From an uncultured Acidobacteriota bacterium (GTDB taxonomy: Bacteria > Acidobacteriota > Vicinamibacteria > Vicinamibacterales > 2-12-FULL-66-21), in assembly GCA_963810305.1 (NCBI GenBank), contig CAWEMY010000005.1:525304-589303 (forward strand): a stretch of 64,000 nt of DNA, written 5' to 3'. The notes under the pieces were generated by a model. It had not been told where the DNA came from and made no database searches. It worked only from the letters and a program-made list of their open reading frames with translations. Shown piece after piece: positions 19,076-61,187 of this stretch. The stretch's first letter is position 1, and each line of letters starts with the position of its first letter. The position numbers and the translations under genes were made by a program.

Positions 19076-20220
19076 AGGCGTGGGCCTTCATCATCGACAA
19101 CTCGCTGCTCCTGGTCGCGGGAGCCGTATCCGCCCTGGTGTGGGCCAATCTCGATCCGGCGTCGTACGAGCACTTCGCTCACGGGCCGATCCATTTCGCC
19201 ACCAACGACGTCGGTATGGCGTTCTTCTTCGCGCTTGCCGCGAAGCAGATCATCGAGGCCCGCCTTCCCGGGGGCGCGCTGGCCTCGCCGCGAGAAGCCG
19301 CAGTACCCCTGATCGCTGCGGTCGGCGGCATGGCGGGGCCCGCGCTTATCTACGTCGCGCTGGCTTCGGCGCTAGACCGTCCTGAGCTGTATCGGGGCTG
19401 GGCTGTCCCGTGCGCGACCGACATCGCGTTCTCGTACATGGCAGCGCGCCTGATCTTCCCTCCGAGGCACCCGGGCATTCCATTTCTCCTGCTGCTGGCG
19501 ATCGCCGACGATGCGCTCGGCTTGATCCTGCTGGCGGTCTTCTATCCGACCGGGCCGCTCTCGCTCGCTCACCTTCGTCGCCCTGATGGTTCCTGCGATC
19601 GCCGTGTCCTACGCGCTGAAGAAGTTCCGGACGATCAGCTTCTGGCCGTACCTCGCCGTCGGCGGGGGACTGTCCTGGTGCGCCATGTATTTTGGCGGCA
19701 TCCATCCGGCGCTCGCTCTTGTGCCGATCATGCCGCTGATGCCGCACGCCAAGCCGCGATCCTGGGTCTCTTCGACGCCGCGCGAAGGACAGCCTTCCCG
19801 ACACCATGAATCGCTTCGAGCATTTCTTCAAGATGCCGGTCCAATTCATCCTCTTCTTCTTCGGTCTGGTGAATGTCGGAGTGCCGCTCGGTGGCATCGG
19901 CACCGGCACCTGGATCGTGGCTGCTCGCGCTGCTGGTCGGAAAGCCGGTCGGCATCGTTCTGTCGACCGTTCTGTCGATCAACGCGGGCCTCCGCGCGCC
20001 CGGAGGCCTGACCACGGTGCACACCGTGGTGGTCGGCGTCGCCGCCGGCATCGGCTTCACGGTTGCCCTGTTCTTCGCGACCGCCGCCTTCCTGCCAGGT
20101 CCGGTCCTCGACGAAGTCAAGATGGGATCGCTTCTCAGCTTTCTCGCAGCCCCTGGCGCCATCCTGCTCGGCCGCGCCGTCGGGCTTCGCCCGAGCGGAT
20201 CCCGGATCGCTGATCGCTGA
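19072..20220 (+). pseudogene. nhaA: Na+/H+ antiporter NhaA, spread over three frames with about four frame changes
   Basis: NhaA-like segments appear successively in track ORFs 18778..19809, 19586..20011, 18778 frame again, 19806..20213 and 19873..20220. Junctions are near 19565, 19745, 19800 and 19915. Confidence 0.85.
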
Positions 20221-49050: not shown

Positions 49051-49137
49051 TGGTGCGAAAGGGGGGATTCGAACCCCCACGTTCTTGCGAACGCCAGCCC
49101 CTCAAGCTGGTGCGTCTGCCAGTTCCGCCACTTTCGC
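49051..49137 (-). tRNA. tRNA-Leu (anticodon GAG), CCA encoded
   Basis: Reverse complement: GCGAAAG acceptor stem pairing with CTTTCGC, anticodon stem CCAGC/GCTGG with loop TTGAGGG, a long variable arm, T-arm GGGGGTTCGAATCCCCC, and 3' ACCA. Confidence 0.95.
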
Positions 49138-49145
49138 GATGAGGG

Positions 49146-49241
49146 CAGGCCGGCTAAAGCCGGCCTCTACCTGTCGAAGACCAGGCCGGCTAACCCGGCC
49201 TCTACCTGTCGAAGACCAGGCCGGCTAAAGCCGGCCTCTAC
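49146..49241. repeat. 2.7 tandem copies of a 35-nt unit containing the AGGCCGGCTAAAGCCGGCCT hairpin
   Basis: The unit CAGGCCGGCTAAAGCCGGCCTCTACCTGTCGAAGAC starts at 49146, 49181 and 49216. The last copy supplies the secG stop codon. The hairpin is the same as at 8336 and 59823. Confidence 0.85.
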
Positions 49242-49537
49242 TTTGGCTGCTGCTGTTGCTGCGGCGCCGCCGGACTGCCGACTCCCTGGATCAACGAACC
49301 CGGGCCGCGCTGGCCGAGGATCCCGAGCACGATCGCGCCGATCATGAACAGCGCCCCGAGGATCGAGCTGGCACGAGTAAGGACGGTTGCTCCGGCGCGC
49401 GCGCCGAACGCCGTCTGGCTCCCGCCGCCGCCGAACGCGCTTGCCATGTCCCCCCCTTTGCCCTGCTGCAGCAACACCACGAGCAGGAGCAGGAAGCACG
49501 AGAGGACGTACAAGGTCGCGATCAAGTAGTAAAGCAT
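49238..49537 (-). CDS. secG: Preprotein translocase subunit SecG
   Basis: Internal ATG at 49537 gives MLYYLIATLYVLSCFLLLLVVLLQQGKGGDMASAFGGGGSQTAFGARAG..., the hallmark SecG pattern. Confidence 0.85.
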   Translation of the reverse strand: MLYYLIATLYVLSCFLLLLVVLLQQGKGGDMASAFGGGGSQTAFGARAGATVLTRASSILGALFMIGAIVLGILGQRGPGSLIQGVGSPAAPQQQQQPK

Positions 49538-49586
49538 AAGTGCCGATTTTACAGGATCAGCCTCGTTCTTGCACGTTTCCTCACGT

Positions 49587-50192
49587 TCACCCCTGCCAAT
49601 ACGCGTCGGGATCATCCATCGGCAGGACCGCGGCTTCGACCTGAATATGGCCGTTCTTCTTCACGTCGATGGTTCTTTCAGGCACCTCGTACCCAGGTTT
49701 CGAAACGAACAGTCTGTGCTCGGCCCCTGCTACGGCAAACCTGGCCAGGCCGGTTGCGTCGGTCGATCCTCGATAAACACCCAGGCGCACGTGTGCATCA
49801 TGGATCGGGGCTTCCGTGTCCCTTTCCACGACTTTGACGGCCACGAGGTGTTCTGGCGGCGGGACGACCACGAACGTAAACGAGCAGGACGACGCGTGGT
49901 GCGGCAACGGCCGATCGGCTGCGGCAAAGTGAAGGGACCAGGAAAAGACCCCCGGCTCGACCGGCGCGACCACTCCGATGTCAGTCCAATACAATGCCGT
50001 CGTGCCCGGCAGAGGTGCGTCTCCCAGCACCGAGCCGGCTACTATCTCGCCGGCTTCATCGCGGATCTCGATCGGTTGCCCCGCGAGTACACAGCCTGCC
50101 GTGCATCTCGCGGCCACCTTGAGTCCATACCTTTCGCCAATCACGACCGGCGACGGATTGTCCCAGACGGCCAAACTCGTCTCGTGAGGCAT
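49587..50192 (-). CDS. Hypothetical protein with C-terminal carboxypeptidase-regulatory-like (beta-sandwich) domain
   Basis: Internal ATG at 50192, 10 nt after the upstream stop. The C-terminal VRLGVYRGSTDATGLARFAVAGAEHRLFVSKPGYE resembles CarboxypepD_reg-type domains. Confidence 0.55.
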   Translation of the reverse strand: MPHETSLAVWDNPSPVVIGERYGLKVAARCTAGCVLAGQPIEIRDEAGEIVAGSVLGDAPLPGTTALYWTDIGVVAPVEPGVFSWSLHFAAADRPLPHHASSCSFTFVVVPPPEHLVAVKVVERDTEAPIHDAHVRLGVYRGSTDATGLARFAVAGAEHRLFVSKPGYEVPERTIDVKKNGHIQVEAAVLPMDDPDAYWQG

Positions 50193-50202
50193 CGGACCGC
50201 TC

Positions 50203-51936
50203 TTATCCAAGGGGCTTGGCCGCTGCCATTCCCGCCAGCCGTCCGAAGACGGCGCACCTTCCGAGGCCGTGTAGCGCGAATCCGCCCTGGACCTCACCGG
50301 CAGCATACAGTCCCGGGATCACCTCGCCACGAGTATCCATGACCTGGCAGCTGGTGTTCGTTCTGAGACCGGTGACTGAATCGTGGAGACACGGGGTCGC
50401 CCAGGCTGCGTAAAAGGGCGGCCTCGCGATCTTATGTGGCGGGCTGGGCCTCTTGAAGTCCACGTCTACGCCGGTATCCACGAAGGAGTTGAAGCGTTCG
50501 ACCGTTTCCCGAAGGACTGTGGGGGGCATCGGCCTCCGCTGGAATGGGTTTCGGATCTGCCTCGCCAGTTCCTCCAATGTCTCACCGCTGAAGAAATAGC
50601 CGCCCTCCCGATCGACCACCGGCGGCTCGGTCGACCAGCGCTCTCTCTCTACAGCGGCTCGATCGAAGATCGCCCAGATTGGCCCGCCGCCGTTCAGCTT
50701 GTCGGGATCGTCCGTGCCAGCCAGCGCATGGGCAAAGTATCCATCGTGGCTGCCGTCCAGCTCATTGTAGAATCGCCGGCCATTTTCCTTCACGAGGATC
50801 AGATTCTGCCAGTTCGTTACCGACATGCCGCTGGCGCGGGCCCTGAAAAAGACGGGACTCTCAGGAGTGATCAGCGCGCGTGCGTAGTTGTCCTGCGTGG
50901 CGAGGCGTCCCTTGTTCAACACCCGGTGCTGGTGCGCCTGGTTGACGGTGCCCCAGAGGGAGGCGCCGACGGCCATGGCGGCAAGCTCTCCATCACCGTT
51001 GTGGGGCGCCAGCGTATGGCCATGCCACTGATACTCCGACGTCAGGCGCGGGTCGAACAGGCGGCGGAACTGAACATTGTTCCCGTGGCCGCCGGTGCAC
51101 AGGACTACGCCCCTGCGGGCCCGGATATTGATGGTCCGCTCCATGGGCCGGAAATGACGGTCCACCTGCCCGACGGTGACACCTGTCACCCTGCCGGCGG
51201 TGCGCCCTTCCCTGAAGACGCTCAGCATTCTGTGCGACAGGAGAATCTCTACCCCTTTGCGCCGCGCGCTTCGCTCGAGCGCCCTGACGATACCCGACCC
51301 GTTTCTTCGCTGATCGTGGGCCACGAGCTGGCTGCGGATCGGCCATTCACGCGGCCGGATCTCTCTCGGTACCGTCGAAGCGTCCTCGGGCCCGCCGAGG
51401 TAGTCTTCCTCCCAATCGAGTCCGTTCTCGGTCAGAAACTCGAACGTCGCTACAGTCTCGTCGGCAAACATGCGAACGAGCTCTCGATCGTTGAATCTGG
51501 CTGCCACGTGGTCGGGCCGGGTCCAGTCTCTGAAGACCATGTCGGGCGAATCCTCGATGCCCTTCTGCTTCTGGAGCCTGTTGCCGCCACCAAGGTGCAT
51601 GCTGCCGCCGCTCATGATCGCGATTCCGCCGATGTCAAAATGCTGCTCGACCAGCAGCACAGAGGCGCCTCCGTCGCGCGCCGCAATGGCCGCCGGGAGG
51701 CCGGCTGCGCCTGCTCCGAGGACCACGACATCGACTTCGCGGTGCCACTGAATCTCGCCGGCTTGGGCGGCTGGCGCCGCCTGGGTGGCTGACGCAGCTG
51801 TCGGGCCAAGTCCTGCAAGAGTCGCGGCCCCGCCGACGCCGGCGATCGCACCCGACCTGAGGAACTTCCTTCGACTGCCACTACGTGGGTTCCCGCTGTC
51901 ACCGTGCTTTCGACGATCTCGATCTTCGTTGGCCAC
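50203..51936 (-). CDS. Tat-exported FAD-dependent oxidoreductase (fumarate reductase / KstD-like flavoprotein family)
   Basis: Twin-arginine signal SRRKFLRSGAIAGVGGAATLA and dinucleotide motif VDVVVLGAGAAGLPAAIAARDGG. The proposed GTG start near 51936 is approximate. Confidence 0.8.
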   Translation of the reverse strand: MANEDRDRRKHGDSGNPRSGSRRKFLRSGAIAGVGGAATLAGLGPTAASATQAAPAAQAGEIQWHREVDVVVLGAGAAGLPAAIAARDGGASVLLVEQHFDIGGIAIMSGGSMHLGGGNRLQKQKGIEDSPDMVFRDWTRPDHVAARFNDRELVRMFADETVATFEFLTENGLDWEEDYLGGPEDASTVPREIRPREWPIRSQLVAHDQRRNGSGIVRALERSARRKGVEILLSHRMLSVFREGRTAGRVTGVTVGQVDRHFRPMERTINIRARRGVVLCTGGHGNNVQFRRLFDPRLTSEYQWHGHTLAPHNGDGELAAMAVGASLWGTVNQAHQHRVLNKGRLATQDNYARALITPESPVFFRARASGMSVTNWQNLILVKENGRRFYNELDGSHDGYFAHALAGTDDPDKLNGGGPIWAIFDRAAVERERWSTEPPVVDREGGYFFSGETLEELARQIRNPFQRRPMPPTVLRETVERFNSFVDTGVDVDFKRPSPPHKIARPPFYAAWATPCLHDSVTGLRTNTSCQVMDTRGEVIPGLYAAGEVQGGFALHGLGRCAVFGRLAGMAAAKPLG

Positions 51937-52009
51937 TCTGGCGCCTCCGCGTCCGGCGATCTGCCGATGGGTCAAAAGGGAGTACTCGTGGTTGGACCCG
52001 AGTGGTACG

Positions 52010-53589
52010 TCAAAAGCGGTCGATGCCGCTGGTCGTCCCGGCAGGAAGTTTCGCGCCCAACTTGAGGAGCAGGGCCATGGTACTCTCGTACCTGCTGGCC
52101 CCCGCACGCTGACCCACGCCAGCTGCAATCTGGTACGGCGTCAACCCCCGGCGGTCCGCCGCGTTCAGATTCGCGCCCTTGTCGGCCAGGAATTGAACGA
52201 TGCTGTCCCCCTGGATGCTGGCGGCGTGGTGCAGTGCGGTTTGGCCACCCGGACCCGGCGCATCGAGGTCGGCACCAAGGGACGCGATCAGTTGCACGGC
52301 CTCCAGAGCTTTCGCCGCCTCCTCCTTGCTGCGTTCCTGACCCGCCCCGTCAATAATCCGCTTTGCTCCTGCAGCGAGCATCAACGCCGTCGTCCCATCC
52401 TCCAACGCCAGATCCGGATCGGCGCCTGCAGCCAGCATCATGCGCATGATGCGAACGTCACCGGCGGCAGCGGCCAGAGCAAACGGTGTCCCTCCTTCGG
52501 GGTTATTCTCCCGAAACGTAAACATCGCCAGCCGCGAGAAGCGCCGCGTGACCCGAGCGTTCGGATTCGCGCCCCGCGAGAGAAGCGCCTCGACCAGCTG
52601 CGGCATGTTGGGGCGCCGTACGGGATCATGAAAAGGTCTGAAGAGGAAGCCGCTGATTGCGGCCCATCCTTCGGGCACCGCATGATGCAACGCCGTCCAG
52701 CCATAGGCATCCGCCGCATTTGGGTCTGCTCCATGCTCCAGCAGGAACCGGGAGAGCGCCTCATGGCCGCTGGCGGTCGCCATCACCAATGGGCTGGGGT
52801 TCTGTGCCGGCACAAAACAGAGGGGGTCGTCCGGGCCGGTGCGGTCTCGGTCGGTTGTGCCAATGCAGGCCCCACCGGTCAGGTCACGACGGGCTCCGGG
52901 CGCCCGGGAGGTGACCTCGTTCACGTTCGCGCCCGCCGCGACCAGAATCCGGGCTGACTCGAGGTCTCCCTCCTGTGCGGCAAAGAGCAACGCCGTGAAT
53001 CCACCCGTGGAGCGTGCACGCCAATCCGCTCCTGCCTCGATCAGCGCCCGTACGACTTCCGGGTGTTTCGCCGCAACGGCCCGCATCAAGGCCGTATGCC
53101 CCCCTTGCCGTGTCTCCTTCGCATTCACGTCCGCTTGGCGAGACAGCAGGGACTTGACCGCTTCCACGTGGCCCGTGCGGGCGCATGTCATGAGCGCCGT
53201 CTCTCCGGTCCACTGGGTCAGGTTCGGATCAGCGCCAGCCCTCAAGAGGGTCTCGACCATGGCGCGCTCCGATTGACGCAGGCGAGTGTCAGAGGCGTAA
53301 CGCCGTAGGTGTTGGCCAAATTTGGATCGGCGCCAGCGCGAACCAGAAGATCTGCCGTCTCCAGGTTGTCCCGGTGGGCTGCCCACGCCAACGCGGTCGC
53401 TCCATCAGGTTCGGTCGCATCGACCTTTGCGCCCTGTTTTATGAGAGCACGCACGACCGCAGGCGAGCTGCCGTTCTTGACCGCCGCCAGCAGCCGCAGA
53501 TCGTCGGCGGCGACGGGAATACTGGCGGCTGAGAGCATCCACGCCAACGCCCAGCCGGCGCGAACGCTGGTTCCATCCATCGTGAACAC
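52010..53589 (-). pseudogene. Secreted ankyrin-repeat protein (~12 repeats), one frame change near 53265
   Basis: Track ORF 53242..53589 gives a signal peptide and the first repeats, ending at ...GVTPLTLACVNRS. Track ORF 52010..53386 continues ERAMVETLLRAGADPN..., with repeated G.TALH.A motifs. Confidence 0.8.
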
Positions 53590-53592
53590 GCG

Positions 53593-54939
53593 CTACACGG
53601 ACAGCAGGTCGAGCTTCCCGGTGCTGTCGCCAAACTGCTCCACCGGAAGCCCGAGCCTGTCCAGCAAAGCGAGATACATATTCGTCATCGGCGTATCTTT
53701 TGGGTACTGGAGGTGCCGACCGCCTTTGATCCGGCCGTCGCCGTCGCCGAATATCAAGAGCGGCAGATTCCGGAAGTCGTGCGAATTGCCATCGGAGATG
53801 GCGCTGCCGAAGGTGACGATCGAGTGGTCCAGCAGGGAGCCATCGCCGTCGGCAGTCGACCGCAGCTTCTCCACGTAATAGGCGAACAATTCGGATTGCA
53901 GGGTTTCGATCCGGATCACCTTCTCGATCTTCGCGCGATCGCCGCCGTGATGCGTCAAGGGATGATGCGCGTCGGCAATCCCGATTTCGGGGAATGGTCG
54001 ATTCGTCTTCTCACGGCCCATCATGAAAGTGATGACGCGGGTGATATCAGCCTGGAAGGCGAGAACCTGCAAGTCAAACATCAACCTGGCATGTTCCTGG
54101 TAGGTGGCGGGGATCCCGACCGGCCGCTCCACCACAGGCAGCTCCCTGGGACTCTGCTTCTCGGCCACTTCGATGCGACGTTCAATGTCGCGAATGGAAT
54201 GGGCGTACTCGGACAGCTTCGCCTGGTCGCCGGGACCGAGCTCCCGCACAAGATCAGCCATGGCGTGGCTCATCGAGTCGAGGATGCTGCGATTGCGTCG
54301 GAAGCTGGCACGCTGCTCTCGCGCGTCCGTGCTCTGGAGGTCGCCGAACAGCCGCTCGAATACTCGACGCGGATTGTGCTCCATGGGGAGCGGCGTCGTG
54401 GGACCTTGCCAGCAGAGCGTGTTGATATAGGCGCAGTTCCAGCCTCGTTCACATGCGCCGGAGATCCCGGCGGAATCGAGACTGACTTCGAGTGACGTCA
54501 ATTGGGTGTGCTTGCCGATTTCTCTCGCGATGATTTGATCGAACGAAATTCCGTTGCGGAAGTCGCTGCCATCGGTCCACTTCGGCTGAACTCCTGTCAG
54601 ATACGCACCGGCGGGGCGCTCGTGCACGCCGATCTGCTGCCCGGGCAACGCTCGCGCCTGTTCCTGGGAGAGTCCGGTCAGAACGGCGAATCGATCGCGA
54701 TGCGGGGCGAGCGGTTTGAGAAGGCGAGGCAGCTCGAAGTCGTTGCCCGCCGTCGCGGGTGTCCAGTCGTCCATGATCCGGCCATTCGGAACATACACAA
54801 CGCACAATCGCTTCACCGGTTCAAGCGAGCTCGCGCTGGCGAACGCCGGGATCATGGCGTCCAGCGCGGGAAGGGCCACCGCTGCACCGATGCCCCGCAG
54901 AAACGTGCGCCGAGGGATTGCCTTCTTGAAGATCATCAT
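53593..54939 (-). CDS. DUF1501 family protein (sulfatase/alkaline-phosphatase-like fold) with Tat signal
   Basis: N-terminus MMIFKKAIPRRTFLRGIGAAVALPAL, 448 aa. The start overlaps the stop of the upstream DUF1592-type gene (ATGA). Confidence 0.85.
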   Translation of the reverse strand: MMIFKKAIPRRTFLRGIGAAVALPALDAMIPAFASASSLEPVKRLCVVYVPNGRIMDDWTPATAGNDFELPRLLKPLAPHRDRFAVLTGLSQEQARALPGQQIGVHERPAGAYLTGVQPKWTDGSDFRNGISFDQIIAREIGKHTQLTSLEVSLDSAGISGACERGWNCAYINTLCWQGPTTPLPMEHNPRRVFERLFGDLQSTDAREQRASFRRNRSILDSMSHAMADLVRELGPGDQAKLSEYAHSIRDIERRIEVAEKQSPRELPVVERPVGIPATYQEHARLMFDLQVLAFQADITRVITFMMGREKTNRPFPEIGIADAHHPLTHHGGDRAKIEKVIRIETLQSELFAYYVEKLRSTADGDGSLLDHSIVTFGSAISDGNSHDFRNLPLLIFGDGDGRIKGGRHLQYPKDTPMTNMYLALLDRLGLPVEQFGDSTGKLDLLSV

Positions 54940-57486
54940 CGTCTTCTCTCCCTCGCGGTATTTTCCGCAGTCCTCACCTGATCCACCTGATCCGCCGTTC
55001 TCATCTGAAAAGGCACGCTCTTGACGGTAGCCAGGACCAGGGACGACCAGCGATAGTCTGCTCGTGCGGCCTGCCGCACAATGTGCCGAACGGCCGGACC
55101 GTCGTAGTACTCCAGTCCACGCCCAAGAGCGTAGGTCAGTAGCCTCTCTGCGACGGCAGAGGCCAGCCGTTCCGGTGAGCGCAGCAACACTTCTCGAAGT
55201 CCTGCGGGACCCTCAAAGGCGGTCCCATCGGGAAGTACCGCAGAGGCGTCGATGGTGGCGCCCGCGTCTCTGCTTCGCCACCGCCCGATGGCATCGAAAT
55301 TCTCGAGCGCAAAACCCAGCGGGTCCATTGGTGCGTGACACACACTGCAGGCGCGATTCGTACGATGCTTCTCGAGCAGTTGGCGCAACGGCATTTCGCC
55401 GATTGCGCCGGCACTCTCCAGGGCTGGAACGTCAGGGGGAGGTGGCGGAGGGGGCGCGTTCAGGAAGTTCTGCAGGACCCAGTGGCCGCGCAAGACCACG
55501 GACGTCCGATTGGCATACGACGTCACGGTCAGAAGGCTGCCCTGACCAAGGAGGCCGCGGCGCGCATCGAATTCCGGGCCGAGTTTCACCCGCCGAAAGT
55601 GACTCCCGTAAATGTGCGGAATGCCATAATGCCGGGCCAGCCGTTCATTGAGAAACGTATAATCCGCATCCACCAGTCTCAGGACGCTCCGGTCCTCGCG
55701 CACCATGCTCTCGAGGAACAGCTCCGTCTCCTGCCTGAATGCCTCCCGCACCTTCTCATCGAACTCCGGAAACAGCTCTCGATCCGGCTCGGATGCGCCG
55801 AGATTGCGGAGCTGCAACCATTGCGCGGCGAAATTGCGGGCAAACGCGGTTGCAAAGCGCGGATCGGCGAGCATACGCCGCACCTGCCGGTCCATTGTCA
55901 CTGGATCCTTGAGGTTGCCGCTCTCGGCCACCTTCAACAGTTCGTCATCCGGGATACTGCTCCACAGGAAAAACGACAGACGAGAGGCTAGTTGCAGGTC
56001 ACTGATCCGGTAGGGCGGCCCGGCCTTTACGGTCGCCGGCCCAGGTTCGATCCGGAACAGAAACTCGGGTCCGACCAGGATTCGGATCAGCGCCGCCCGA
56101 ATCCCTGCTTCGAAGCCCCCTTCGCTTCGAGCGGACTTGTAGACACCGAGCAGCGCTCGAACGTCCCCGTCCGTGACCGGTCGACGATACGCGCGACGAG
56201 CAAGCGTGGAAAGGATCCTCGTGGCGCAGGGTTCTTCGTCGGCGATGCCCTTGGGGCGGCAGACGAAGACCTTCGCGCGGCTCGGTGTGTCGCCCACGGC
56301 TTCGACGCGGTGAGGTCCCGTGATTTCCACGGTATTGATGGCAGGGCTGCCCCCCTTCCACTGCACCCTGTCGGGCTCGGTCTCGATGCGCGGTCGGACC
56401 ACCGGGTATTCAGGCGTGAGGTTCTCGTGCAGGAACGTGACGCCGACGATCCGCGGGCCCGCCTTGGCGAAAAAGCGTGCCTCCAGGTTGCGATCCACGT
56501 CGACGAGCTGATACGCCTCGCTCGCCTGATCGCCGATGGCGCTCGCCCGCGAAAACGGTGGTCCCGGCGTCTCCATCCTGTCGCCGCCCCCGACCGTGAA
56601 CAACTCGATTCGGCGGCCGTCCAGGCGGATATCCAGGTGATGCGGCTCGAAGAGGCCGATTACATACCCACGCGAATTCCTTTGGAGGGTGATCTTGACC
56701 GTATATTCACCGTCGGCCGGAAAGTACTGGCGAATCGCCACGCCGCCGCGGGAGCCGAACGGGAGATCCTCGCTCATCCGCTCCTCTTGCAGCAGGAGTG
56801 GGTTGACCTTTATCGAAAACGAAGACGGCTGGACGTCACGCTCTCCGACTGCAAGCCCACTGATCCGACGGGCCACGGACAGATACTGCTCGAGCAGTCC
56901 AGACGTGACCGAAAGGGCGGATCCGATATTGTCGAAGCCGTGCTGCGTCTCGTCGATCGGCAGGAGCCCGTCGCCATCGATCTCGATTGCCAGCAGGTCG
57001 CGGATGGCGTTGGTGTACCAGGTACGATTGAGACGGCGGAGAACAACCTTGCCAGGACGCGGATCCGCGAGGGCCGCGCGATCCAGTTCAGTCTCGAGAT
57101 AGGCGACGAATGCGTCCAATGCGGGTTTGTCCGGTCGCCGCATCCCCACCGGTGGCATCTGGCCTGCCCTCAGCTTTGCGACGACTTTCTCCCACGTCTC
57201 CGGAGTGTTCACCGACCTGCTCGATGGAAAGCTGATCGAGTACCAGTCCTCCCGTGGCGAGGCGGGCGTTGTGGCAGGTGACGCAGTAGTCTTTGACGAG
57301 CGCGCCGTAATCCGAAGCGGTAAGTGGGGGCAGCGATGGGACAGATGCGGCCCGGCTCGTCATCGGCCGAAATGCTTCGGCCCTGAAGGGCGCGGTGTCT
57401 GGGCTGGCGGGCCGAAGGTACCCGGCTGCACCAAGCGCGATTGTGCCGGCTAGAACGCCGACGCAACCCCAGAACACTCTTCTCAC
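54936..57486 (-). pseudogene. DUF1592/DUF1588/DUF1595-type protein with N-terminal heme-binding CxxCH module, one frame change near 57215
   Basis: Track ORF 57088..57486 gives a signal anchor and CVTCHN...GGLVLDQLSIEQ. Track ORF 54936..57212 continues NTPETWEKVVAKLRAGQMPP... and contains a second CSVCH. This architecture is typical of the partner of DUF1501. Confidence 0.8.
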
Positions 57487-57641
57487 TGACTCCCCCTTGC
57501 AGAGCCGATGGCGCGTGCGACACTTCGGGTCGGGGCGATTATAGCAACTACCTTCGTGGCTCCAACCTCAGAGCGGCAGGGACGTTCGTCGGCAGCGCCT
57601 GCCGACGTAGAATGTGTCGCGTGAGGCCAACTCGCCCGGAG

Positions 57642-58262
57642 ATGCCCCCAGGACGCGGCAAGATACATACATCGATTGCGGCCGTTGCCTGCCTCTTGCT
57701 GACGTTGGGATATGGGGCCTCCGCCACAATCAGCCAGGTCGCGCCTCGTTCGCCATCGATCTGGGATGGGGTCTTCTCTGAAGCGCAAGTCCGACGGGGG
57801 AAACAGGCTTATCAGGCTAGCTGCGCCGCGTGCCATGGCGACGACCTGGTTGCTGTGGATCCCGAATCGCCTTCCCTGACGGGCCCGCGGTTCAAAGTGG
57901 CGTGGATTGGCAAGACGATCGCCGAGCCGTTTGAGTTGACGCGAAAGACGATGCCGCCCACCAGCCCCGGCAGCCTTGACAACCAGACGAATGTCGACAT
58001 TCTGGCGTTTGTTCTCGAGTTCAACGGTTACCCCACTGGAGCGAAGGAGCTGGGAGTCGATCTCGCTGTTCTGAAGAGCATCCTGATCGAGCGGGCGGAG
58101 AACCGGCCGCGGCGCTTCGATCCGTTCAGGTCCTCTATACCGCGCTTTGGCGGCTTCGCGACAGGATCTCCGAGAACGCGCGGATCTCGAGGCTGGCGCC
58201 GCCGACAAGCGCGCCATCGACCTCCGGCAACACCATCAGCTCGTGAATGTTGTCGGGTTTGA
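57642..58262 (+). CDS. Secreted c-type cytochrome
   Basis: MPPGRGKIHTSIAAVACLLLTLGYGASA signal peptide and one CxxCH motif (CAACH). The last ~40 codons overlap the tpiA 3' end on the other strand and look non-native, so the true 3' end is uncertain. Confidence 0.6.
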   Translation: MPPGRGKIHTSIAAVACLLLTLGYGASATISQVAPRSPSIWDGVFSEAQVRRGKQAYQASCAACHGDDLVAVDPESPSLTGPRFKVAWIGKTIAEPFELTRKTMPPTSPGSLDNQTNVDILAFVLEFNGYPTGAKELGVDLAVLKSILIERAENRPRRFDPFRSSIPRFGGFATGSPRTRGSRGWRRRQARHRPPATPSARECCRV

Positions 58263-58902
58263 CGCTGCCGCCGTAGATCACGTGACAATGATCCGCGGCC
58301 GCGCCGCCGAACCCCTGGCGGATGCGGTTGCGGATGTGACGATGCGCCTCGTCCACCTGCTGCGCAGTCGCGTTGCGGCCGGTGCCAATGGCCCACACCG
58401 GCTCGTACGCCAGGACGAGGGATCCGATCTGCTCGCCGGTCAGCCCGTCGAGCCCCTGTTTGATCTGCCGGTCGAGCACGACCAGCGTGACACCACGGTC
58501 GCGCTCTTCCAGCGTCTCTCCGATGCACACGATCGGTGTCAGTTGCGCCCCGAGTGCGGCAAGCAACTTTCTGTTCACCGTCTCGTCAGTCTCCTGAAAC
58601 AGCCGGCGGCGCTCGCTGTGGCCGATGATCACGAACTCCGCTCCGGCCCCCTTGATCATTGGCGCGCTGACTTCCCCGGTGAACGCCCCCTCGCGTTCCC
58701 AGTACAGGTCCTGCGCGGCAATGCCGATCGCACTGCCGCGCGCTGCTTCCGCCGCCGCATGCAGCGCCGTGAACGGCGGGGCGACGACGACCTCGATATC
58801 AGAGATGTCCTTGATGATCCGCCGGAACTCCTTGATGAAGACGACCGCCTCGTGGACGGTCTTGTGCATCTTCCAGTTCGCCGCGATGAAAGGAGTTCGC
58901 AT
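58135..58902 (-). CDS. tpiA: Triose-phosphate isomerase
   Basis: Internal ATG at 58902 gives MRTPFIAANWKMHKT. Motifs IIGHSERR and AYEPVWAIGTG. Confidence 0.9.
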   Translation of the reverse strand: MRTPFIAANWKMHKTVHEAVVFIKEFRRIIKDISDIEVVVAPPFTALHAAAEAARGSAIGIAAQDLYWEREGAFTGEVSAPMIKGAGAEFVIIGHSERRRLFQETDETVNRKLLAALGAQLTPIVCIGETLEERDRGVTLVVLDRQIKQGLDGLTGEQIGSLVLAYEPVWAIGTGRNATAQQVDEAHRHIRNRIRQGFGGAAADHCHVIYGGSVKPDNIHELMVLPEVDGALVGGASLEIRAFSEILSRSRQSAV

Positions 58903-58920
58903 AAGAGGGTGCCATGCCAA

Positions 58921-58976
58921 GTGCGACGTGCGACGTGCGACGTGCGACGTGCGACGTGCTACGTGCTAGGTGCCAA
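58921..58976. repeat. Eight tandem heptamers GTGCGAC (5 perfect, 3 degenerate) between pgk and tpiA
   Basis: GTGCGAC x5, then GTGCTAC, GTGCTAG, GTGCCAA. The last units encode the final pgk codons and its TAG stop. Confidence 0.85.
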
Positions 58977-60149
58977 TGCCTCCACGCCCGGTAGTTTACG
59001 TCCGCCGAGGAATTCGAGCGAGGCCCCACCGCCGGTCGAGATGTGGGTGATCCGGTCGGTCACTCCCGCCTTTGCCACGGCGGCGATCGAGTCGCCGCCG
59101 CCGATGACGGTCGTGCCCTTCACTTCGGCCACCGCCTTGGCGATCTCGATGGTGCCGGTCGCGAAGGCGTCGATTTCGAACACGCCCATCGGCCCGTTCC
59201 ACGTCACAGTCTGTGCTGTCCTCAGGACCCGATGATAGCGCTCGATGGTCTTTGGTCCGATATCGAGACCCTTGCGGTCACCGATGCGTGGATCGCCGAT
59301 ATCGAGCATCTCGGTCGGCGCGCCGGCCTCGATTTTCGATGCGACGACGTGATCGACCGGAAGCTCCAGGCGCAGATTTCGCGCGCGCGCTTTCTCTTCG
59401 ACGTCACGGGCAGCATCGAGCAGGTCCTCCTCGACAAGGGAGGTGCCTACCGGAACACCGCGCGCCTTGAGAAACGTGTATGCCATCGCGCCGCCGACCA
59501 ACAGGGCATCCAGCCGCGGGACCAGATTCTGAATCACCTCGAGCTTGTCCGAAACCTTGGCCCCTCCGAGGATCGCGACGAACGGCCGGGAAGGGTTTTC
59601 GAGCACACGCCCGAGGTACTCGACTTCCGCCGCCATCAACAGTCCCGCCGCCGACTCTTTGACGTGCCGGACGATCCCTTCGGTTGACGCATGCGCGCGA
59701 TGCGCGGATCCGAAGGCATCGTTGATATAGACGTCCGCCATGGAACCAAGTTGGGCGGCGTAGGCGGGATCGTTCTTTTCCTCGCCGGCGTTGAAGCGCA
59801 GGTTTTCGAGGAGGACGATTCCAGGCCGGCTGTCAGGCCGGCTGTCAGGCCGGCTAAAGCCGGCCTCTACAGCGGAATCGAACTTCACCGGCTGGCCGAG
59901 GAGCTCGCTCAGCCTGGTCGCCACCGGCTGGAGCGAGTATTGAGGGTCGGGCTTCCCTTTGGGACGTCCGAGGTGCGAGGCGAGGATGATGACCTTCGCG
60001 CCGTTCTCGAGCGCGTACTTGATGGTCGGCAGCGACGCCCGGATGCGCGTATCGTCGGTGATCCTGCCGTCCTTCAGCGGAACGTTGAAATCGACCCGGA
60101 TGAAGACACGCTTGCCGCGGAGATCCAGGTCCTTGACGGTCCTCAGCAC
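58959..60149 (-). CDS. pgk: Phosphoglycerate kinase (intact ORF carrying an in-frame repeat element)
   Basis: Motifs FIRVDFNVP, ASHLGRPKG, LLENLRFNAGEEKND and ISTGGGASLEFL. The start abuts the gap stop with no spacer. Confidence 0.92.
   Translation of the reverse strand: MLRTVKDLDLRGKRVFIRVDFNVPLKDGRITDDTRIRASLPTIKYALENGAKVIILASHLGRPKGKPDPQYSLQPVATRLSELLGQPVKFDSAVEAGFSRPDSRPDSRPGIVLLENLRFNAGEEKNDPAYAAQLGSMADVYINDAFGSAHRAHASTEGIVRHVKESAAGLLMAAEVEYLGRVLENPSRPFVAILGGAKVSDKLEVIQNLVPRLDALLVGGAMAYTFLKARGVPVGTSLVEEDLLDAARDVEEKARARNLRLELPVDHVVASKIEAGAPTEMLDIGDPRIGDRKGLDIGPKTIERYHRVLRTAQTVTWNGPMGVFEIDAFATGTIEIAKAVAEVKGTTVIGGGDSIAAVAKAGVTDRITHISTGGGASLEFLGGRKLPGVEALAPST
59823..59870 (-). repeat. Hairpin repeat element in frame within pgk (codons 94-109: VEAGFSRPDSRPDSRP)
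   Basis: On the coding strand it reads GTAGAGGCCGGCTTTAGCCGGCCT followed by 2 x GACAGCCGGCCT. The core is identical to 8336-8359 and the 49146-49241 units. Confidence 0.8.

Positions 60150-61187
<1,038 letters not shown>

Follow-up and report, generated by a model that had tools for sequence, protein, structure and literature searches.

The best-described relatives of the locus considered here are gene pairs of Planctomycetes and Verrucomicrobia in which a haem protein with PSCyt3 and PSD domains (the domains of Studholme 2004) is encoded directly upstream of a DUF1552 protein (PMC5615132). He et al. 2017 (PMC5615132) point out that the genes for PSCyt2 and PSCyt3 proteins adjoin unknown families, a separate one in each case, and that no function is known for them. 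There is a second kind of association, in which DUF1501 proteins are partnered with proteins carrying PSCyt1, PSCyt2 and PSD1 domains (Kamneva et al. 2012, PMC3542564). In Rhodopirellula baltica, the PSD1 and PSCyt2 domains each occur 41 times (PMC2754498), and a DUF1592 protein bearing a CBM2 domain is present in a lignocellulose-degrading community (PMC6004670). We analysed a stretch of 64,000 nucleotides (contig CAWEMY010000005.1, positions 525,304 to 589,303), hereafter called the window, and all coordinates given are positions within it. It carries five minus-strand genes, all read in one direction and located between tpiA and secG/tRNA-Leu(gag), which encode a predicted two-haem PSCyt3/PSD protein (gene 1), a DUF1552 protein (gene 2), a secreted ankyrin-repeat protein (gene 3), a flavoprotein that binds flavin adenine dinucleotide (FAD; gene 4) and a beta-sandwich protein (gene 5). 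On balance, and with modest conviction, we read this locus as two extracytoplasmic modules placed side by side rather than as one indivisible five-gene unit.

There are 79 loci at 51-71% identity in a metagenome scan anchored on gene 2, and these were then compared with the window proteins by tblastn. Gene 1 is found directly upstream of gene 2 in 63 of the 64 loci that have enough upstream DNA. A full-length orthologue of the ankyrin protein is present in 55 of the 62 informative loci and absent from seven, while in the remaining 17 the downstream DNA is too short to judge. In 40 of the 55 loci the orthologue is located directly downstream of gene 2 on the same strand, and in the other 15 it is found at another place in the locus. 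The matches are full-length, with 400-570 aligned residues in complete copies, and show 40-63% identity overall. An ankyrin gene is also found in every related locus fetched by way of the flavoprotein that reaches far enough. The conserved unit is therefore a trio, here called module A, consisting of the two-haem protein, the DUF1552 protein and a secreted ankyrin protein of about 520 amino acids. The initial annotation had suggested that the ankyrin and flavoprotein genes extend the pair formed by genes 1 and 2 beyond a two-gene unit and that this linkage offers a handle on its function, and the near-constancy of the ankyrin gene bears this out for its part.

The trio resembles the PSCyt3/PSD and DUF1552 pairs of Planctomycetes and Verrucomicrobia in that gene 1 has the same domain set and the DUF1552 gene is located directly downstream of it. 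The differences are that an ankyrin gene stands third here and in most of the relatives sampled, and that the present hosts are apparently Acidobacteria-like, not bacteria of the PVC (Planctomycetes-Verrucomicrobia-Chlamydiae) group. The nearest named homologues carry mixed labels of metagenome-assembled genomes (MAGs), namely Acidobacteria, Terriglobia, Gemmatimonadales and one 'Gammaproteobacteria' (P0243, P0218), and an Rfam scan of the 64-kb window found no rRNA. No mention of an ankyrin partner for such pairs was found in the literature searched. The DUF1501 modules (PMC3542564) are alike in combining an enzyme exported by the twin-arginine translocation (Tat) pathway with a large putative c-type haem protein, and some variants include extra genes. 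However, they differ on both sides, since gene 2 has no DUF1501 match and gene 1 has neither PSCyt2 nor PSD1. With both partner families different, the DUF1501 label first given to gene 2 is wrong.

The second module was delineated from the flavoprotein side by tracing homologues of gene 4 to their own contigs. A parallel scan of genomic contigs with the flavoprotein yielded only one close locus, L001, the other six matches being uninformative paralogues that are about 25-29% identical. All five genes are colinear in L008, where the flavoprotein is 95% identical to gene 4 and the context is window-like, and in L009/L010 (80%), where the genomic context is different. Genes 1, 2 and 3 are found on the opposite strand, divergent from genes 4 and 5, in L012 (77%) and L011 (74%). 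The P0023 contig (69%) likewise has genes 1 and 2 divergent from genes 4 and 5, and it ends before the expected gene 3. In L096, part of a 6.2-Mb contig, a PSD protein, a TonB-dependent receptor, a DUF1552 protein and an ankyrin protein are encoded on one strand, and a flavoprotein (55%) with a short gene 5 is encoded divergently. In these four places, the two modules must be separate transcription units. Module B stands without an adjacent trio in four loci. Two of these, L013 (67%) and L095 (64%), have only the flavoprotein and gene 5; L001, from a Beijerinckiaceae MAG (61%), has gene 4, gene 5 and a cytochrome c gene colinear; and L014 (59%), which has genes 4 and 5 and a DUF1552 gene 9 kb away, is in effect the fourth. 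Finally, L094 has a trio followed by a convergent flavoprotein paralogue (48%) and a dihaem cytochrome.

Gene 5 is located directly downstream of gene 4 in all 11 other loci that have a gene 4 orthologue. In the opposite direction, neither gene 4 nor gene 5 is found in any of the 79 loci anchored on gene 2, of which 29 are at least 9 kb long. Gene 5 is thus always found with an orthologous gene 4 and the trio is not, which indicates two modules. Module B consists of the Tat-signal flavoprotein and a beta-sandwich partner that has no signal, and a small c-type cytochrome is usually encoded nearby. The neighbourhood comparison proposed in the initial annotation is therefore positive for the ankyrin gene and divided for the flavoprotein gene, which is missing from the gene-2 sample and is carried with gene 5 but without an adjacent trio in four loci, and which nevertheless recurs next to the trio through an inversion and again in L096 and, as a paralogue, in L094.

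The initial annotation had proposed one obligate five-gene operon whose products all serve one complex or pathway. The tight and colinear packing in the window, in L008 and in L009/L010 is what such an operon would look like: the five genes share a strand, and the spacings from gene 1 to gene 5 are -4 (an ATGA overlap of genes 1 and 2), 3, 73 and 10 nucleotides. Terminator-like sites between the genes are not above shuffled expectation in a scan of this row, although the promoter and terminator scans of the locus are uninformative overall, and adjacency of the two modules does recur in other arrangements. However, this arrangement as a unit is not conserved. The complete lack of genes 4 and 5 among the gene-2-anchored trio loci, the occurrence of genes 4 and 5 by themselves in L001, L013 and L095, and the opposite strands in the four loci listed above all speak against it, and the neighbourhood data largely refute an obligate operon. 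We regard it as quite unlikely, while the shared strand and short gaps that inspired it stand for the window.

It is also conceivable that the two modules are neighbours through inherited gene order only and have no functional tie. A neighbour-joining tree of gene 2 speaks for this, since the flavoprotein-linked copies form a single clade, except for that of L096, and the sister clade, at 63-70% identity, lacks the flavoprotein. Against it, the adjacency has been kept through an inversion and in at least three flanking contexts, and it appears again in L096, together with a flavoprotein of only 55% identity and a gene 2 that branches more distantly than any other in the tree, and again in L094 with its paralogue and dihaem cytochrome. 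In the tree of gene 4, trio-linked flavoproteins occur on both sides of the deepest split within the family, and the alphaproteobacterial clade (L001, L095 and Bauldia) has no adjacent trio in the two loci read, L001 and L095. The trees and arrangements together indicate that the adjacency of modules A and B is old and has since been lost in places, or else that it arose repeatedly. We consider mere inheritance of gene order unlikely. The adjacency has survived inversion and relocation, which argues for two modules joined by a functional link that is likely real but non-obligate.

Turning to the parts of module A, gene 2 (53593..54939, minus strand; 448 amino acids) matches DUF1552, also named HXXSHH (PF07586), with E = 4e-98 and 329.2 bits against a cut-off of 30, over profile positions 1-307 of 307. 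No match to DUF1501 (PF07394) was returned by hmmscan at E <= 0.01, PF07586 being the only family reported. The twin-arginine signal that had been noticed in this protein is present as PRRTFLRG, and its residues P9, R10, R11 and F13 are invariant among 43 homologues. Six histidines are invariant in total, including H326, H330 and H331 of an HPLTHH motif at residue 326. This histidine pattern, together with export by the Tat pathway, suggests a metal site that would be loaded in the cytoplasm.

An AlphaFold2 model of gene 2 has a mean predicted local distance difference test (pLDDT) score of 64 and a predicted template modelling score (pTM) of 0.69. When it was compared with the PDB by Foldseek, the top 50 matches all belonged to the alkaline-phosphatase superfamily (best E = 1.6e-5, probability about 1.0). 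The matches between E = 1.6e-5 and 1e-3 include steroid and carbohydrate sulfatases, LtaS and phosphonate monoester hydrolases, with template modelling (TM) scores of 0.21-0.42 for this model. The core fold is tentatively predicted to be alkaline-phosphatase/sulfatase-like, as in type I sulfatases, LtaS and the phosphonate monoester hydrolases. Gene 2 differs from that superfamily in three respects. Sequence and profile searches of the PDB with it returned nothing below E = 0.27, a regular-expression search for the C/S-x-P/A-x-R nucleophile motif (CxPxR or SxPxR) found none, and the conserved site is rich in histidine.

Gene 1 (54936..57486, minus strand) encodes 849 amino acids once repaired as described below. 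It has PSD3/DUF1587, PSD5/DUF1595, PSD4/DUF1592, PSCyt3/DUF1588 and PSD2/DUF1585 domains above the Pfam cut-offs and a weaker N-terminal PSCyt1 match (26.1 against a cut-off of 22). This is the domain set, with CxxCH, of the PSCyt3/PSD-type 'planctomycete-specific' cytochromes. The CxxCH motifs are located at residues 68 and 713, and both are invariant in 34 homologues, as is the methionine of a GxMPP segment. Gene 1 is accordingly a predicted two-haem secreted protein, and the earlier description of a DUF1592-type protein of about 850 amino acids with two such motifs agrees with these results. The structure was modelled by AlphaFold2 on P0241, an intact homologue of 97% identity, and the model (mean pLDDT 64) has a beta-jelly-roll between helical regions. 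Foldseek gave no PDB match to it at E <= 1e-3, and weak CBM-like and C1q-like matches of the jelly-roll middle domain were not used. No NCBIfam model matches genes 1, 2 or 5.

Gene 3 (52010..53589, minus strand), about 526 amino acids long once repaired, has Ank_2 repeats in five stretches (E = 1.8e-64) and Ank repeats in seven (E = 1.6e-61). Its N-terminus is signal-like, in keeping with the secreted ankyrin protein of about 525 amino acids first described. There are precedents for such a protein beside a haem enzyme. As cited in PMC10294975 (references 85-87: Howell 2000, Flint 2015, Pan 2018), small ankyrin-like proteins are encoded beside haem catalases in the AnkB-KatB and Cj1386-KatA pairs and are needed for full catalase activity or for haem loading. 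The likeness, so far as that account goes, lies in a haem enzyme whose gene adjoins that of a bacterial ankyrin-repeat protein, AnkB being periplasmic. Gene 3 differs in being about three times larger and in having a partner that is no catalase, and a link to haem would be by analogy.

Gene 4 (50203..51936, minus strand) starts with GTG at 51936, behind a GGAGG sequence and 73 nucleotides after gene 3. It matches FAD_binding_2 (PF00890) with E = 2.9e-48. The N-terminal Tat motif is SRRKFLRSGAIAG, within which the twin-arginine motif reads SRRKFLRSG, and homologues have RRTFLKSG or RRRFLKSG. The Tat-signal FAD oxidoreductase of the initial annotation is thereby confirmed. The twin-arginine motifs of genes 2 and 4 are invariant among homologues, and in both proteins an S/T-R-R-x-F-L-K-type motif is followed by a hydrophobic N-terminal stretch, from which export is predicted. 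The best PDB matches by sequence are 1qjd, 6t85 and 4at0 (E = 1e-36 to 1e-27). These similarities place gene 4, by sequence, in the superfamily of flavocytochrome-c fumarate reductases, urocanate reductases and 3-ketosteroid dehydrogenases (KstD). The FAD_binding_2 fold is common to gene 4, Fcc3 fumarate reductase, UrdA and KstD, and the Fcc3 and UrdA proteins of Shewanella are also periplasmic. In contrast to these enzymes, gene 4 scores below the cut-off of the flavocytochrome c model TIGR01813 (203.8 bits against 285.45), has no CxxCH haem motif and no fused haem or flavin mononucleotide (FMN) domain, leaves its substrate-binding region unaligned, and has a beta-sandwich partner of its own in gene 5.

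Gene 5 (49587..50192, minus strand) encodes 201 amino acids and has a C-terminal domain resembling CarboxypepD_reg (PF13620). The score in the window is 24.9-25.5 bits, below the cut-off of 32.3, so that the domain proposed earlier is not secured by this copy, while its size is as stated. The homologue in L011 reaches 39.6 bits, and 31 of 40 family members match at E <= 0.01. There are 616 representatives of the gene 5 family at E <= 1e-10. They occur in a short form of about 200-222 amino acids (window, L008, L096) and a long form of 280-341, or about 310, amino acids (for example L009:11805-12647 and L011:11755-12669), the latter with an additional beta-rich domain at the N-terminus that looks like a duplicate of the first domain. 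The first domain also has a conserved C-x3-C pair. No N-terminal signal-like sequence was found in gene 5 of the window or in five of the six homologues read, and the sixth, the L012 gene 5 call, begins with an extra arginine-rich extension.

The pairing of a signal-bearing protein with a signal-less one is reminiscent of Tat 'hitch-hiker' pairs, such as the small and large subunits of hydrogenases or DmsAB, in which one subunit carries the twin-arginine signal and a signal-less partner is always co-encoded. Genes 4 and 5 are alike in this respect, gene 4 having the signal and the adjacent, always co-encoded gene 5 having none. However, gene 5 is a cofactor-less beta-sandwich rather than an iron-sulfur or catalytic subunit, and its co-export is putative. 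A role for gene 5 as a Tat chaperone (redox enzyme maturation protein, REMP) was set aside, as none of the known REMPs is a beta-sandwich protein.

Divergent from the row, and absent from the initial annotation, is a cytochrome c gene (about 57642..58262, plus strand, start uncertain) whose product is monohaem and class-I-like, with a CAACH motif and a Pfam Cytochrome_CBB3 match of 33.8 bits. It is 90% identical to a cytochrome c of 155 amino acids at the same position in L008. Homologues adjoin the flavoprotein module in L001 and L011, and a different small cytochrome c is found beside it in L012. The cytochrome c gene belongs to the same block as genes 1 to 5, and this six-gene block is embedded in a row of housekeeping genes, gap-pgk-tpiA ... 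secG-tRNA-Leu (49051-61172). On one side are tpiA (58135..58920, minus strand; Pfam TIM) and, upstream of it, pgk and gap (Pfam PGK and Gp_dh). On the other are secG (49238..49537, minus strand; PF03840, 63.7 bits, start checked) and tRNA-Leu(gag) (49051..49137, minus strand; ARAGORN, Rfam RF00005). The surroundings are quite different in the relatives L009, L011 and L012, which indicates that the block has moved as one unit or as two.

Genes 1 and 3 each carry a single-base frameshift in the window sequence and are not intact there. The reference for both is L008, a metagenome contig from ENA that shares the gene order at 95-97% identity, and in which the two genes are whole and encode 863 and 523 amino acids. 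By alignment with it, gene 1 contains one surplus T at about 57204, which puts the N-terminal 95 codons, including the first haem motif, out of frame with the remaining 754, and gene 3 lacks one C at about 53264, its frame breaking after about 108 codons. From a codon-usage frame track and a Pfam scan, an amidase (~15270), NhaA (~19567-19900) and Acyl_transf_3 (~44479) proved to be split elsewhere in the window. Profile positions 1-122 and 114-445 of the amidase are found in two open reading frames (ORFs), NhaA is broken into at least three pieces and the Acyl_transf_3 gene into two. A DUF4870-like ORF may switch frame at ~4310, and overall the contig resembles an indel-prone long-read assembly. 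The cytochrome c ORF extends about 49 codons (58115-58262) beyond the end of its L008 homologue, and this tail runs into the 3' end of tpiA over about 128 nucleotides and resembles non-coding translation; it may be due to another indel.

L009 and L010 are near-identical copies of one locus from two ENA long-read assemblies, yet they have different genes split. In L009, a nucleoside transporter gene is split and gene 1 is whole, whereas in L010 the reverse is true. This shows directly that frameshifts in such data can be assembly-specific. Given this disagreement, the intact genes of L008 and the other split genes of the window, the frameshifts in genes 1 and 3 are probably assembly errors. Programmed frameshifting was rejected, since L008 is plainly in frame at both sites and unrelated window genes are split too. 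A different explanation would be that the indels are real and that the trio is being lost in this strain. Two of the five genes are indeed interrupted, but each interruption is a single-base indel relative to an otherwise closely matching intact relative, there are no further stops or deletions, and the coding signal continues in both pieces. The unrelated split genes and the discordant sister assemblies also speak against decay, which we consider very improbable.

Several other genes recur near these modules. Outer-membrane proteins resembling TonB-dependent receptors, with either CarboxypepD_reg and OMP_b-brl_4 domains or Plug and TonB barrel domains, are encoded near the trio in 18 loci (for example L090:9913-13623, L012:536-3694 and L096:4299-6917). 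Such a gene is inserted between the haem protein and DUF1552 genes in L096 and between the DUF1552 and ankyrin genes in L083. Also near the trio, in 16 loci, is a family of about 570-620 amino acids that combines CarboxypepD_reg, CxxCH and a beta-propeller resembling Vgb lyase or SGL (for example L039:11533-13392, L042:3151-4863, L038:1892-3532 and L092:2175-3944). Of the seven loci without ankyrin, two have it immediately behind gene 2 and a further two have it nearby. The neighbours also include NHL propellers and metallo-beta-lactamase-fold proteins. Module B is followed in three loci by thiamine pyrophosphate (TPP) enzymes of 626-650 amino acids with twin-arginine-type N-termini (L009:17018-18898, DRRKFLQG; L011:13612-15528, DRRKFLHG; L012:13144-15096, SRRGFVTG). 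They adjoin the flavoprotein and cytochrome c genes, and a Tat-exported TPP enzyme is unusual.

Our best guess at the function of the locus is an extracytoplasmic redox assembly. All products of both modules would end up in the periplasm, gene 5 perhaps by being exported as a hitch-hiker bound to the folded flavoprotein. Gene 4 might act on a C-C/C=C bond beside a carbonyl or carboxylate group, oxidizing or reducing it, and swap electrons with the adjacent cytochrome c. By analogy with the pairing of an ankyrin protein and a haem enzyme in AnkB and KatB, gene 3 could be a scaffold or a haem-protein accessory that tethers the two-haem protein and the DUF1552 metalloenzyme to each other. The trio and the flavoprotein module may, in certain Acidobacteria-like lineages, serve in one redox or catabolic route, and the trio may be equally able to serve other periplasmic redox partners.

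There are several points that weigh against this picture. Most trios have no flavoprotein nearby, and any coupling of the two modules is optional. The loci sampled are metagenome fragments and are biased towards relatives at 51-98% identity, which are one part of the wider DUF1552 family. The roles assigned to the components derive from sequence, context and models, and PSCyt/PSD systems are functionally unknown in the literature (PMC5615132, PMC3542564). The hitch-hiker export of gene 5 and the tethering role of gene 3 are pure conjecture. The models of genes 1 and 2 are only moderately confident, the TM-scores of the gene 2 model to sulfatases are about 0.4, and with the CxPxR motif lacking, hydrolase chemistry is not established for gene 2.

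A bolder and highly doubtful proposal is a modular hub for periplasmic electron transfer in Acidobacteria-like bacteria, of which the ankyrin protein would be an obligate third subunit. Through it, interchangeable redox enzymes, namely the flavoprotein together with gene 5, Vgb-lyase-like beta-propellers that bear haem, and pyrroloquinoline quinone (PQQ) dehydrogenases, would dock onto the DUF1552 metalloenzyme and its two-haem DUF1592 partner, possibly by way of the CarboxypepD_reg-type beta-sandwich domains that they share, and substrates would arrive through the proteins resembling TonB-dependent receptors. If true, this would provide a role for a family of gene pairs that ranks among the largest uncharacterised ones of soil and aquatic bacteria.

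For annotators of this contig, the corrected family name (DUF1552) and the probably artefactual nature of the frameshifts are of immediate consequence. More broadly, some Planctomycetes and Verrucomicrobia are rich in PSCyt/PSD haem proteins and in the DUF1501 or DUF1552 proteins that partner them, and many relatives are found here in Acidobacteria-like metagenome contigs, yet the PSCyt/PSD families have been functionally unassigned since 2004. The optional but recurrent neighbours, which include a flavoprotein with cytochrome c, haem beta-propellers and proteins resembling TonB-dependent receptors, suggest where substrates might be sought. The near-constant secreted ankyrin partner in one large subfamily is a new clue, and it leads to testable hypotheses on the function of the trio.

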